IMG/VR virus record: IMGVR_UViG_2645727555_000012
Strand: one strand, 5' to 3'
Length of the DNA stretch: 5,387 nucleotides
Origin: a virus
Lineage: Duplodnaviria; Heunggongvirae; Uroviricota; Caudoviricetes
In this document: positions 1,002-4,687 of the stretch, in pieces
Position numbering within the stretch: position 1 is the stretch's first letter
How the letters are laid out: the number at the start of each line of letters is the position of its first letter
Translations under genes and position numbers: made by a program
Notes under the pieces: model-generated
The model's database searches: none
Told to the model about the DNA's origin: nothing
What the model saw: the letters and a program-made list of their open reading frames with translations, nothing else

Positions 1002-1745
1002 ATGACAAAGACAGAATCAGCGATTCTGGCGCACGCCCGGCGATGTGCGCCAGCGGAGTCGTGCGGCTTCGTGGTGAGAACGCCGGAGGGGGAAAGATAT
1101 TTTCCCGGCGTGAATATTTCCGGTGAGCCGGAGGCGTATTTCCGTATGTCGCCGGAAGACTGGCTGCAGGCAGAAATGCAGGGTGAGATTGTGGCACTGG
1201 TCCACAGTCATCCCGGTGGTCTGCCCTGGCTGAGTGAGGCTGACCGGCGGCTGCAGGTGCAGAGTGATTTGCCGTGGTGGCTGGTCTGCCGGGGGGCGAT
1301 TCACAAGTTCCGCTGTGTGCCGCATCTCACCGGGCGGCGCTTTGAGCACGGGGTGACGGACTGTTACACGTTGTTCCGGGATGCTTATCATCTGGCGGGG
1401 ATTGAGATGCCGGATTTTCATCGCGGGGATGACTGGTGGCGTCACGGTCAGAATCTCTATCTGGATAATCTGGAGGCCACAGGGCTGTATCAGGTGCCGT
1501 TGTCATCAGCACAACCGGGCGATGTGCTGCTGTGCTGTTTTGGTTCATCGGTGCCGAATCATGCCGCCATTTACTGTGGTGATGGCGAGCTGCTGCACCA
1601 TATTCCTGAACAACTGAGCAAACGAGAGAGGTATACCGACAAATGGCAGCGACGCACACACTCCCTCTGGCGTCACCGGGCATGGCGCGCATCTGCCTTT
1701 ACGGGGATTTGCAACGATTTGGCCGCCGCATCGACCTTCGTGTGA
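1002..1745 (+). CDS. K: Tail tip assembly protein K (gpK-like): N-terminal JAMM/MPN metalloprotease domain plus C-terminal NlpC/P60 papain-like domain
   Basis: 247 aa ORF starting 5 nt after the L stop. It contains the JAMM motif H68-S-H70-x7-S78-x2-D81 ([14 protein letters not shown]) and an NlpC/P60-like Cys121 (GVTDCYTLF) with His188 and His199/200. The classical 199 aa lambda K corresponds to the internal in-frame ATG at 1146, which has a GGAGG at 1130-1134. The 3' end overlaps gene I by 103 nt (1643-1745), as in lambda. Confidence 0.85.
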
Positions 1746-4687
1746 AAACGGGGGCTGAAGCCATCCGCGCACTGGCCACACAGCTCCCGGTGTTTCGTCA
1801 GAAACTGAGCGACGGCTGGTATCAGGTACGGATTGCCGGGCGGGACGTCAGCACGTCCGGGTTAACGGCGCAGTTACATGAGACTCTGCCTGATGGCGCT
1901 GTGATTCATATTGTTCCCAGAGTCGCCGGGGCCAAGTCAGGTGGCGTATTCCAGATTGTCCTGGGGTTCGGCAGCCAGCAGGTGAGCCGTAATTATCATC
2001 TTCGCGGGCGCATTCTGCAGGTGCCGTCGAACTATAACCCGCAGACGCGGCAATACAGTGGTATCTGGGACGGAACGTTAAAACCGGCATACAGCAACAA
2101 CATGGCCTGGTGTCTGTGGGATATGCTGACCCACCCGCGCTACGGCATGGGAAAATGTCTTGGTGCGGCGGATGTGGATAAATGGGCGCTGTATATCATC
2201 GGCCAGTACTGCGACCAGTCAGTGCCGGACGGCTTTGGCGGCACGGAGCCGCGCATCACCTGTAATGCGTACCTGACCACACAGCGCAAGGCGTGGGATG
2301 TGCTCAGTGATTTCTGCTCGGCGATGCGCTGTATGCCGGTATGGAACGGGCAGACGCTGACGTTCGTGCAGGACCGACCATCAGATAAGGTGTGGACCTA
2401 TAACCGCAGTAATGTGGTGATGCCGGATGATGGCGCGCCGTTCCGCTACAGCTTCAGCGCCCTGAAGGACCGCCATAATGCCGTTGAGGTGAACTGGATT
2501 GACCCGAACAACGGCTGGGAGACGGCGACAGAGCTTGTTGAAGATACGCAGGCCATTGCCCGTTACGGTCGTAATGTCACGAAGATGGATGCCTTTGGCT
2601 GTACCAGCCGGGGGCAGGCACACCGCGCCGGGCTGTGGCTGATTAAAACGGAGCTGCTGGAGACGCAGACCGTGGATTTCAGCGTGGGTGCCGAAGGGCT
2701 TCGCCATGTGCCGGGTGATGTTATTGAAATCTGCGATGATGACTATGCGGGGATCAGCATCGGCGGGCGCGTGCTGGCGGTGAACAGCCAGACCCGGACG
2801 CTGACGCTCGACCGTGAAATCACGCTGCCATCCTCCGGTACCACGCTGATAAGCCTGGTTGACGGGCAGGGGAGTCCGGTCAGCGTGGAGGTTCAGTCCG
2901 TCACCGACGGCGTGAAGGTGAAAGTGAGCCGTGTTCCTGACGGCGTTGCTGAATACAGCGTATGGGGGCTGAAGTTGCCGACGTTGCGCCAGCGCCTGTT
3001 CCGCTGCGTGAGTATCCGTGAGAACGACGACGGCACGTATGCCATCACCGCCGTGCAGCATGTACCCGAAAAAGAAGCCATCGTGGATAACGGGGCGCAC
3101 TTTGACGGCGACTTGAGCGGCACGGTGAATGGCGTCACGCCGCCCGCGGTGCAGCACCTGACTGCCGAAGTCACCGCAGACAGCGGGGAATATCAGGTGC
3201 TGGCGCGCTGGGACACGCCGAAGGTGGTGAAGGGCGTGAGCTTTATGCTTCGCCTGACCGTGGCAGCGGATGACGGCAGTGAGCGGCTGGTCAGCACGGC
3301 CCGGACGACGGAAACCACATACCGCTTCACGCAACTGGCGTTGGGAAACTACAGGCTGACAGTCCGGGCGGCAAATGCCTGGGGGCAGCAGGGCGATCCG
3401 GCGTCGGTATCGTTCCGGATTGCCGTACCGGCAGCACCGTCGCGGATTGAGCTGACGCCGGGCTATTTTCAGATAACCGCAACGCCGCATCTTGCCGTTT
3501 ATGATCCGACGGTACAGTTTGAGTTCTGGTTCTCGGAAAAGCGGATTACCGATATCAGGCAGGTTGAAACCACAGCCCGCTATCTTGGCACGGGACTGTA
3601 CTGGATAGCCGCCAGTATCAATATCAAACCGGGCCATGATTATTATTTTTACGTTCGCAGTGTGAACACCGTTGGCAAATCGGCATTTGTGGAGTCCGTC
3701 GGTCGGGCGAGCGATGATGCGGAAGGTTACCTGGATTTTTTCAAAGGCAAGATAACCGAATCCCATCTCGGCAAGGAGCTGCTGGAAAAAGTCGAGCTGA
3801 CGGAGGATAACGCCAGCAGACTGGAGGAGTTTTCGAAAGAGTGGAAGGACGCCAACGATAAGTGGAATGCCATGTGGGCTGTCAAAATTGAGCAGACCAA
3901 AGACGGCAAACATTATGTCGCGGGTATTGGCCTCAGCATGGAGGACACGGGGGAAGGCAAACTGAGCCAGTTTCTGGTTGCCGCTAACCGTATCGCATTT
4001 ATTGACCCGGCAAACGGGAATGAAACGCCGATGTTTGTGGCGCAGGGCAATCAGATATTCATGAACGACGTGTTCCTGAAACGCCTGACGGCACCCACCA
4101 TTACCAGCGGTGGCAGTCCTCCGGTATTTTCCCTGACATCAGACGGAAAGCTGACCGCTAAAAATGCGGATATCAGTGGCAGTGTGAATGCGAACTCAGG
4201 GACGCTCAACAACGTCACGATTAATGAGAACTGTCAGATTAAGGGGAAACTGTCAGCCAACCAGATTGAAGGTGATATTGTCAAAACGGTCAGCAAGTCT
4301 TTCCCCCGCACGAGCACTTATGCCAGTGGCACCATCACGGTAAGAATCAGTGATGATCAGAAATTTGACCGGCAGGTCATGATACCGCCAGTGTTATTCC
4401 GCGGTGGTAAGCATGAGAATTTCAACAGTAATAACCAACAGTCATACTGGTATTCAACCTGCCGGTTAAGAGTGACCCGCAATGGTCAGGAGATTTTTAA
4501 GCAGTCCACGACGGATGCTCAGGGCGTATTTTCCTCAGTTATAGATATGCCTGCCGGACAGGGGACGCTGACACTGACATTCACCGTATCTTCATCAGGA
4601 GCGAATAACTGGACACCAACAACCAGTATCAGCGATCTGCTGGTTGTGGTGATGAAAAAATCCACAGCAGGTATCAGTATCAGCTGA
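1643..4687 (+). CDS. In-frame fusion of tail assembly protein I (N-terminal ~108 aa, ubiquitin-like domain) with host-specificity / central tail fibre protein J (from about lambda J residue 227 to the C-terminus); probable deletion derivative
   Basis: Continuous 1014 aa ORF. Residues 1-108 ([49 protein letters not shown]...[12 protein letters not shown]) match the gpI N-terminus. From residue 109 ([36 protein letters not shown]...) the sequence matches gpJ from about residue 227 onward. The arithmetic fits: 108 + (1132 - 226) = 1014. A GAGAGG Shine-Dalgarno lies upstream at 1626-1631. Could alternatively be typed as a pseudogene; kept as CDS because the frame is intact. Confidence 0.82.

Follow-up and report, generated by a model that had tools for sequence, protein, structure and literature searches.

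The DNA considered here is a 5,387-nt stretch of the IMG/VR virus record IMGVR_UViG_2645727555_000012, called the window below. Its open reading frame (ORF) map and a Pfam scan identify it as the M-L-K-I-J-lom tail-tip block of a lambda-like prophage. Identity at the DNA level is 97.4% with phage 2H10 and 95-97% with many relatives of lambda. The window is bounded by two N-gaps of scaffold DF970462.1 in the Escherichia coli draft genome GCA_001297725.1, and its chromosomal flanks match E. coli chromosomes at 100% identity. Two elements on the plus strand of this block are of concern: gene K (1002..1745), which encodes a two-domain peptidase, and an ORF at 1643-4687 in which the beginning of gene I has been joined to a shortened gene J. 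Taken as a whole, the locus very probably represents the tail-tip block of a lambda-like prophage with a normal K, a gene that is annotated as only 199 aa in lambda because of one base missing from the reference sequence, together with a deletion between I and J that disables the tail.

Gene K begins at ATG 1002, 5 nt past the stop codon of L, and remains open for 247 codons to 1745; the ATG at 1146 is codon 49 of this frame. The first 48 codons (1002..1145, plus strand), supported by conservation and by a structural model, are not part of the 199-aa annotation. The protein consists of a JAB/MPN+ domain followed by an NlpC/P60 domain, as indicated by Pfam (PF14464 and PF00877), NCBIfam, AlphaFold2 and Foldseek. 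The zinc-site motif of JAMM proteins, read from the translation as H68-S69-H70-x7-S78-x2-D81, is at 1203..1244, and by direct count the set of JAMM residues is E19, H68, H70, S78 and D81. Of these, E19 (codon 1056-1058) lies inside the 48-codon extension. A preliminary description of the window, which placed the K ORF, the JAMM motif, the I-J ORF and an AKSGG sequence in gpI, was correct in all its window coordinates and residue numbers. It had also proposed that the extension is needed for a complete JAB/MPN+ domain, a claim that can be evaluated with several kinds of evidence.

First, the Prok-JAB profile PF14464 matches the 247-aa protein with 50.4 bits (cut-off 25) over residues 3-98, covering positions 3-103 of the 114 in the profile, while the 199-aa form obtains 22.9 bits, which is under the cut-off, and aligns only to profile positions 63-103. 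Thus, the Pfam check suggested for the K N-terminus does recover the MPN/JAB domain, in the long form. The NlpC/P60 profile PF00877 (47.7 bits, cut-off 23; residues 111-224, window 1332..1673, plus strand) is matched in both forms. Second, the extension is deeply conserved among 64 homologues of 33-58% identity: E19 is kept in 63, P17 in 60, C21 in 61, and G22 and N38 in all of them. The downstream JAMM residues behave in the same way (H68, H70 and D81 each 64/64; S78 in 60, with T in the remaining four), as do those of the second domain, where D120-C121, H187 and H199 are conserved (C121 and H187 63/64 each, H199 64/64). An exhaustive, profile-free homologue search returned 1663 cluster representatives at E<1e-10; full-length representatives typically have 230-250 aa, and their alignments begin at query residue 3-10. 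It is this deep conservation that constitutes the real argument for the extension. The ratio of non-synonymous to synonymous polymorphism (pN/pS) against close relatives, 0.35 for the extension and 0.07 for the rest of K, is weak support because the 44 sequences compared are close and non-independent.

Third, in an AlphaFold2 model of the 247-aa protein (mean predicted local distance difference test score, pLDDT, 97.1; predicted template-modelling score 0.91), the extension contributes helix 3-15 and strands 21-27 and 30-36 to the JAB domain, and its residues 1-48 have a pLDDT of ~97-98. Foldseek relates this domain to PfJAMM1, alone and bound to SAMP2, and to AMSH, Rpn11 and CSN5, all with probability 1.00; for PfJAMM1 5ld9 the target-normalised template-modelling score is 0.67 and the root-mean-square deviation 2.6 Å. 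The second domain is matched to NlpC/P60 enzymes of the MepS/Spr type and to autolysins of C. difficile. A sequence match in the PDB, the JAB protein 2kks, covers residues 6-105 of K, and the model of a haloarchaeal desampylase matches weakly, and only when the long K is used. In conclusion, the K of the window is a normal full-length two-domain peptidase, and its 48-codon extension is needed for a complete JAB/MPN+ domain.

Translation of K would start at the ATG 5 nt past the L stop. No Shine-Dalgarno sequence is seen upstream of ATG 1002 and, because of this, translational coupling of K to L is likely. The absence of such a sequence may also be read in favour of a second start, from which a 199-aa protein with only the NlpC/P60 domain would be made by internal initiation at ATG 1146, as a real extra product beside the 247-aa form. 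A GGAGG at 1130-1134 lies 11 nt upstream of that ATG, and both the lambda reference and the CPT record of lambda imm434 annotate this start with a ribosome-binding site, the imm434 sequence being one that has an uninterrupted frame (see below). Nevertheless, the GGAGG is a by-product of codons P43-E44-A45, and in the alignment column of Met49 there is Ile in 41 of the 64 homologues and Met in only seven. Starting partway through the JAB fold, at helix 51-60, the short form would carry ~50 residues of an incomplete domain, whereas the ATG directly past the L stop is kept in 80/80 close IMG/VR loci. Such an additional product is therefore considered unlikely. The same 247-aa ORF with its ATG start is found in 79 of these 80 loci; in the remaining one (within L010-L089) it is cut to 59 codons, which indicates that lesions inactivating K also occur in this prophage population.

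The origin of the 199-aa annotation becomes apparent when the window is aligned with the lambda reference (NC_001416/J02459, 1982). This reference lacks one G after nt 14266, in GGAGGC[G]TATTTCC, 10 nt before the annotated K start; DNA alignment and ORF lengths place the missing base at 1136 on the plus strand of the window, which corresponds to 1267-1268 of locus L002. As a result, the ORF that starts at the homologous ATG in the reference has only 76 codons, and the gene is split into a 76-aa ORF and the annotated 199-aa K. The preliminary description had stated that K is open for 48 codons above the classical lambda start, which is true in the window; in the lambda reference the frame is broken by the missing G. 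Thus, the 199-aa protein is not merely another choice of start codon, since the reference has a broken frame ahead of the classical start, and the decision between two starts that had been presented as a real alternative is largely an artefact of a single-base omission in the 1982 sequence.

The G, and with it the 247-aa ORF, was checked directly and is present in the window, in 434, 2H10 and PhiR29_2, in lambda imm434, and in PV340536.1, LC730321.1 (48,503 bp) and KT232076.1, the last three being resequenced lambda. Of the 124 phage records that match the segment, only four agree fully with the reference here, namely J02459, NC_001416, OR474059.1 and OR974322.1; DE3, HK629, HK630 and the rest of the closest matches listed cover one base more than the query. 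The two recent GenBank lambda records that share the reference state, OR474059.1 and OR974322.1, may be reference-guided. According to Feiss et al. (2022), many laboratory strains carry nine differences relative to the published lambda sequence; a literature search found no explicit statement that the K frameshift is among these nine. The classical K start is best explained by the omission of a single base in the reference, or at most by a stock-specific mutation, and neither by a competing start nor by an isoform. In effect, gpK of lambda and K of the window are the same gene: they agree in their place after L, in their two domains and in the 103-nt overlap with I. Codons 1-45 differ in three residues only (Q3K, S26R, C36G), and the difference between the two proteins, which lies in the databases and consists of the missing G, is in no way biological.

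Annotation of this region is consequently heterogeneous. For near-identical DNA, K has been given starts at M1 (1002; in 434, PhiR29_2, PV340536 and prophages annotated by the Prokaryotic Genome Annotation Pipeline, PGAP), V24 (GTG, 1071; in 2H10), V37 (GTG, 1110; in KT232076) and M49 (1146; in lambda and lambda imm434), with protein lengths of 199, 211, 224 and 247 aa, and the shorter starts drop E19. Two records from one sequencing project are even in conflict, with a K of 247 aa in 434 and of 199 aa in lambda imm434. Similarly, I has been given starts at M1 (1643), L23 (TTG, 1709) and V34 (GTG, 1742), and the shorter ones drop the strand 14-19 of its ubiquitin-like (Ubl) domain. Thus, GenBank holds at least four K starts and three I starts for near-identical DNA, NC_001416/J02459 and the 199-aa K entries of UniProt style describe a truncated K without half of its JAB domain, and a K or I that is modelled or cloned from the reference would have an inactive JAB domain or a clipped Ubl domain. 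Little in the present analysis is biologically new, and its residual value lies mostly in the curation of these annotations.

Gene I follows K in a different reading frame. Its codons 1-108 are retained at 1643..1966 on the plus strand, where they match PF06805 (Lambda_tail_I) with 99.1 bits over residues 14-97 and are 99% identical to residues 1-108 of lambda gpI, including the whole beta-grasp and its glycines. When I starts at M1, it overlaps K by 103 nt (1643-1745). Residues 1-13 of I are conserved in enterobacterial homologues, although this stretch is also constrained by the C-terminus of K; in distant phages, the K stop is preceded by only ~10 nt of open I frame, and the long overlap seems to be specific to the lambda group. 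The preliminary description had proposed that gpI begins with a ubiquitin-like beta-grasp domain, and this holds: residues 14-96 (1682-1930, plus strand) model as a beta-grasp of the MoaD/SAMP/Urm1 type. The AlphaFold2 model of this head, of moderate confidence (pLDDT 66.8), has strands 14-19, 30-33, 60-64 and 87-92 and helix 37-47 and is disordered from residue 96. The top Foldseek matches are MoaD, MoaD-related proteins, SAMP1, Urm1 and CysO, followed by SUMO and ubiquitin.

The Gly-Gly at residues 100-101 (1940-1945), within the sequence AKSGG, had been taken as the end of the Ubl domain. These residues are present in the window, but they do not represent a family motif, because G100 is only 32% conserved (Gly in 26 of 82 sequences, Ala in 41). 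By contrast, G96 (1928-1930, plus strand) is found in all 82 aligned sequences, and G101 in 72 of 80 (90%). The family also keeps Q104 (70 sequences) and G108 (80 sequences), and its motif is roughly P-V-x-x-G-[SA]-K-[RK]-[AG]-G-x-x-Q. These counts derive from 98 diverse IMG/VR loci that were found through distant K proteins and gave 89 distinct sequences aligned with lambda gpI; the distant K-I pairs were obtained with the queries P0306 and P0290, a related-locus search with P0348 gave no loci, and a search with a 7-sequence alignment returned close relatives only. A 95-aa Ubl query recovered mostly partial proteins, which were used as the AlphaFold2 alignment and are poor for family-wide conservation. 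In the model, the last strand of the beta-grasp ends at residue 92, and G96 is four residues later, which is the position held by the terminal glycines in ubiquitin and MoaD. The scissile bond of gpI may thus be at G96 rather than after G100-G101, and the family pattern, with G96 invariant and G100 variable, points to where this bond should be sought. Both candidates, G96 and G101, are retained in the window.

Much of what relates K to I is already known. The K architecture, the Ubl head of I, its predicted processing and the existence of prophage I-J fusions were all published in 2006 by Iyer et al., who described TAPK as JAB plus NlpC/P60 and TAPI as a ThiS/MoaD-like Ubl domain that has a conserved glycine at its C-terminus and is followed by a glycine-rich linker and a C-terminal domain, predicted that the JAB domain processes the TAPI Ubl, and noted TAPI-TAPJ fusions in prophages. 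Therefore, the idea that K processes gpI, put forward again in the preliminary description, is a published prediction, and the cleavage has since been reported in a talk: according to a meeting report (Davidson 2025), gpK cleaves the Ubl domain off gpI, and does so only after gpI has joined other tail-tip proteins. In addition, DUB (deubiquitinase) domains have been described in phage tail-assembly proteins and speculated to counter the Bil defence system (Hör et al.). In the normal arrangement, gene I would encode a MoaD/ThiS-type Ubl domain that is joined to a C-terminal plug domain through a hydrophobic linker rich in Gly and Ala; gpK would remove the Ubl domain during tail-tip assembly, and the virion would retain the C-terminal part, a trimeric plug that binds gpJ and the gpH C-terminus. 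In effect, only residues 135-223 (or 134-222) of gpI are seen in the virion by lambda cryo-electron microscopy.

A similar relationship exists between archaeal JAMM1/desampylase and SAMP, and between eukaryotic Rpn11, AMSH or CSN5 and ubiquitin or NEDD8. These enzymes have the same fold and the same E...HxHx7Sx2D zinc site as K, and their partner is a beta-grasp Ubl protein of the MoaD/SAMP/Urm1 type, as is the head of gpI. In those systems the Ubl protein is removed at its C-terminal glycine, and the same reaction is described in the literature for K and gpI. There are, nevertheless, differences. The Ubl domain of gpI is translated as the N-terminus of its target, and the bond that is cut is a linear peptide bond, as in the processing of ubiquitin precursors. 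Moreover, there is no E1 or E2 in the K/I pair, and K carries an extra NlpC/P60 domain.

In the window, this normal arrangement is interrupted after codon 108 of I. The ORF at 1643-4687 encodes 1014 aa, which correspond to lambda gpI 1-108 (99%) followed by lambda gpJ 227-1131 (87%, blastp). The junction, which has no strand of its own, is at 1966..1967 and follows G108, 7 residues after G100-G101. It was located by BLAST against the 2H10 locus (L001), and both breakpoints were read. Compared with 2H10, the window lacks 1086 bp (L001 2466-3551), which take in codons 109-223 of I, the spacer between I and J, and codons 1-226 of J. As 1086 is a multiple of three and the two genes share a reading frame, I continues in frame into J. 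The breakpoints share 1 nt (G) of microhomology, and an illegitimate recombination event very probably deleted the segment, joining I codon 108 to J codon 227. The J part, from codon 227 to the stop (1967..4687, plus strand), encodes the last 906 aa of the central tail fibre, among them the receptor-binding domain, as seen with blastp, Pfam and NCBIfam. Pfam recognises Phage-tail_3, Ig_J, Ig_J_second, Phage_Tail_Tip and Ig_GpJ_C in it, while the NCBIfam model lambda_TipJ (NF049904) aligns only over profile positions 227-1163, with 1826 bits against a cut-off of 1950, and does not give a full-length match.

It could be argued that this junction was created by the assembly and that no cell carries the deletion. 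In favour of this, the window is a short contig with an N-gap on each side in its scaffold, and near-identical lambdoid tail regions, which occupy a median of 4 places per E. coli genome, confuse short-read assemblers. However, a collapse of repeats needs homology at the breakpoints, of which there is a single nucleotide, and the junction recurs identically inside a gap-free 28-kb contig of a second assembly, GCA_918347965.1, from a different isolate, which differs from the window by 7 single-nucleotide polymorphisms (SNPs) over 5.4 kb. Two of these SNPs are in the J part, both synonymous, five are in lom, and none is in M, L, K or the I part. Since the identical junction is found in two assemblies that differ in this way, the deletion is regarded as real, and an artefact as extremely improbable. 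The deletion is inherited and is probably recent.

The fusion is also rare. A gene call of 981 aa, which begins at a GTG (V34 of the fusion), is recorded in two NCBI assemblies, both of them E. coli draft assemblies. Exact-protein look-ups with the 1014-aa ORF, or with shorter forms that begin at M14 or L23, gave no match; the junction pattern has no match in GTDB representative genomes, IMG/VR or JGI metagenome contigs; and none of the complete E. coli genomes spans the junction. Among the close IMG/VR loci in which I can be read to its stop, 0/78 are fused, and I is a separate gene of 213-223 aa. Other kinds of damage are nonetheless frequent in this part of the block. In two other E. coli prophages, FORC 064 (L005) and Ec-FL1-1X (L006), different I/J deletions join or truncate the genes, which PGAP annotates as pseudogenes, and in FORC 064 K is also cut, beside an IS3-family transposase pseudogene. 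Decay at the I/J locus of E. coli prophages is thus common and takes place by independent deletions.

Regarding the consequences of the deletion, the 110-kDa chimera would consist of the Ubl domain, seven linker residues and a J without residues 1-226. Residues 109-223 of lambda gpI, which hold the C-terminal domain and the greater part of the hydrophobic linker, are deleted in the window, so that the Gly/Ala-rich linker and the TAPI-C plug domain are missing and only 7 residues remain after G101. According to the published domain map of gpJ (PMC10721106), strand β4 of the HDII insertion, all of FNIII-A (72-215) and β13 are inside residues 1-226, and the N-terminal HDII presumably is as well. 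In lambda, the lost gpI plug and J 1-226 contact each other and complete the last ring together with gpL; because of this, a functional tail tip is not expected. The lost J regions would normally bind the plug and help to form the last tail ring, and without them the prophage would be unable to build a tail tip. By analogy with the lambda structures, tail-tip function has most likely been lost through the deletion.

An alternative is that the fusion is functional, either because a K-cleavable Ubl domain on the receptor-binding part of J serves as a dominant-negative protein or decoy against superinfecting lambdoid phages, or blocks their receptor, or as a member of the natural TAPI-TAPJ architecture. 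The ORF is in frame and open within a late operon that is otherwise intact in two assemblies, and natural fusions do exist: eleven environmental loci from IMG/VR (L193-L204), mostly from aquatic metagenomes, have a JAB-only K followed by a single I-J ORF, and fusions of this type had been noted by Iyer et al. in 2006. The K homologues of these loci match only the JAB part of the query (~60-90 aa), and their I-J ORFs have at least 730-835 aa and run off the fetched locus (e.g., L194 2833-5217). Like the window ORF, they follow a JAB gene and encode a J-like protein with an N-terminal Ubl domain. They differ, however, in containing the Ubl domain, a hydrophobic linker, a plug motif and then J-like sequence; that is, they keep the linker, the plug and a complete J N-terminus, all three of which are missing from the window fusion, which stems from a recent deletion. 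A natural TAPI-TAPJ fusion is recognised by a complete I that is continuous with a complete J, and the window chimera has neither. The environmental loci illustrate how a working I-J fusion is built, and the chimera does not resemble them. The hub protein pb3 of T5 has an internal plug domain, and removal of the Ubl domain from the natural fusions would leave a hub of this kind; the environmental loci fit the idea that Ubl removal leaves a T5 pb3-like hub with a built-in plug.

The resemblance to the Bil system, which disables phages by attaching a Ubl protein to the central tail fibre, may also be brought in favour of a functional fusion. Bil comprises a Ubl protein, an E1, an E2 and a JAB deubiquitinase, and the likeness to the window lies in the attachment of Ubl to this same fibre. 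Nevertheless, Bil acts through host-encoded enzymatic conjugation to lysines for defence, while the window has a genetic fusion produced by deletion, without E1 or E2. Furthermore, the fusion arises by a clean 1086-bp deletion from sequence otherwise ~97% identical to that of unfused phages, the domains for interaction with L, M, H and other J subunits at the hub are gone, it is found only in two closely related assemblies, and a repressed prophage does not normally express its late operon. A functional fusion is accordingly very unlikely. A more specific version appears less likely still, to the point of being barely credible: that a Ubl-deltaJ chimera expressed from a tail-defective prophage has been co-opted as a soluble, K-processable, receptor-binding J fragment that hinders superinfecting lambdoid phages in tail assembly or adsorption. 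If true, it would be a genetically hard-wired analogue of the poisoning by a 'ubiquitinated central tail fibre' of the Bil type.

The favoured explanation thus remains a tail-disabling deletion beside a normal K, and several observations weigh against parts of it. The missing G is shared by OR474059.1 and OR974322.1, and a stock-specific mutation may lie behind it rather than a sequencing error. The cleavage of gpI by gpK comes from a meeting report and not from a full paper. The loss of function is deduced from lambda structures. The I-J fusion keeps the reading frame and has no stop within its 1014 codons, and the late operon in the second assembly's locus looks otherwise intact, from the protease/scaffold gene to tfa. 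Finally, the deletion has persisted through a slight divergence, although two synonymous SNPs in J are far too few to show selection.

These considerations also bear on the proposal that a putative peptidase-substrate pair is preserved in the window. The sequences of both partners do remain, but function is not implied by this, as the deletion removes the gpI plug and J 1-226. In addition, the reading is weakened because cleavage has been reported, in the meeting report mentioned above, only after gpI joins the tail-tip complex. The Ubl domain and its glycines would have survived beside an intact K because of the position of the breakpoint, and their survival is not evidence of a retained peptidase-substrate function. 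The simplest view of the 'preserved peptidase-substrate pair' is that it was left over by accident when a deletion in the prophage killed the tail.

The remaining features of the window are those of an ordinary lambda-like late region. The window begins within gene M, the 3′ part of which (distal tail protein) occupies 2..298 on the plus strand and matches PF05939 (Phage_min_tail) with 117 bits. It is followed by an intact L (298..996, plus strand), which encodes a tail-tip hub protein of 232 aa (PF05100, 334 bits) and ends with a TAA stop at 994-996. An Rfam scan of the window found no RNA family, and in a scan for promoters the promoter-like sites of the window were at chance level. Two minus-strand ORFs, at 202-1197 (331 aa) and 2381-3913 (510 aa), were considered as genes and rejected, since they lie wholly opposite well-supported coding sequence. 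They oppose L/K and J, respectively, and are treated as shadow ORFs of GC-rich coding DNA. In the interval between J and lom, a consensus scan detected a terminator-like hairpin with a T-run (4705..4733, plus strand); the hairpin is GC-rich, and phage 434 has a terminator annotated at the same place. Downstream of it, lom is intact (4754..5353, plus strand) and encodes an Ail/Lom outer-membrane protein of 199 aa (PF06316, 393 bits). Two of the five SNPs that distinguish the lom genes of the two assemblies, at window positions 4799 and 5108 (lom codons 16 and 119), are non-synonymous.

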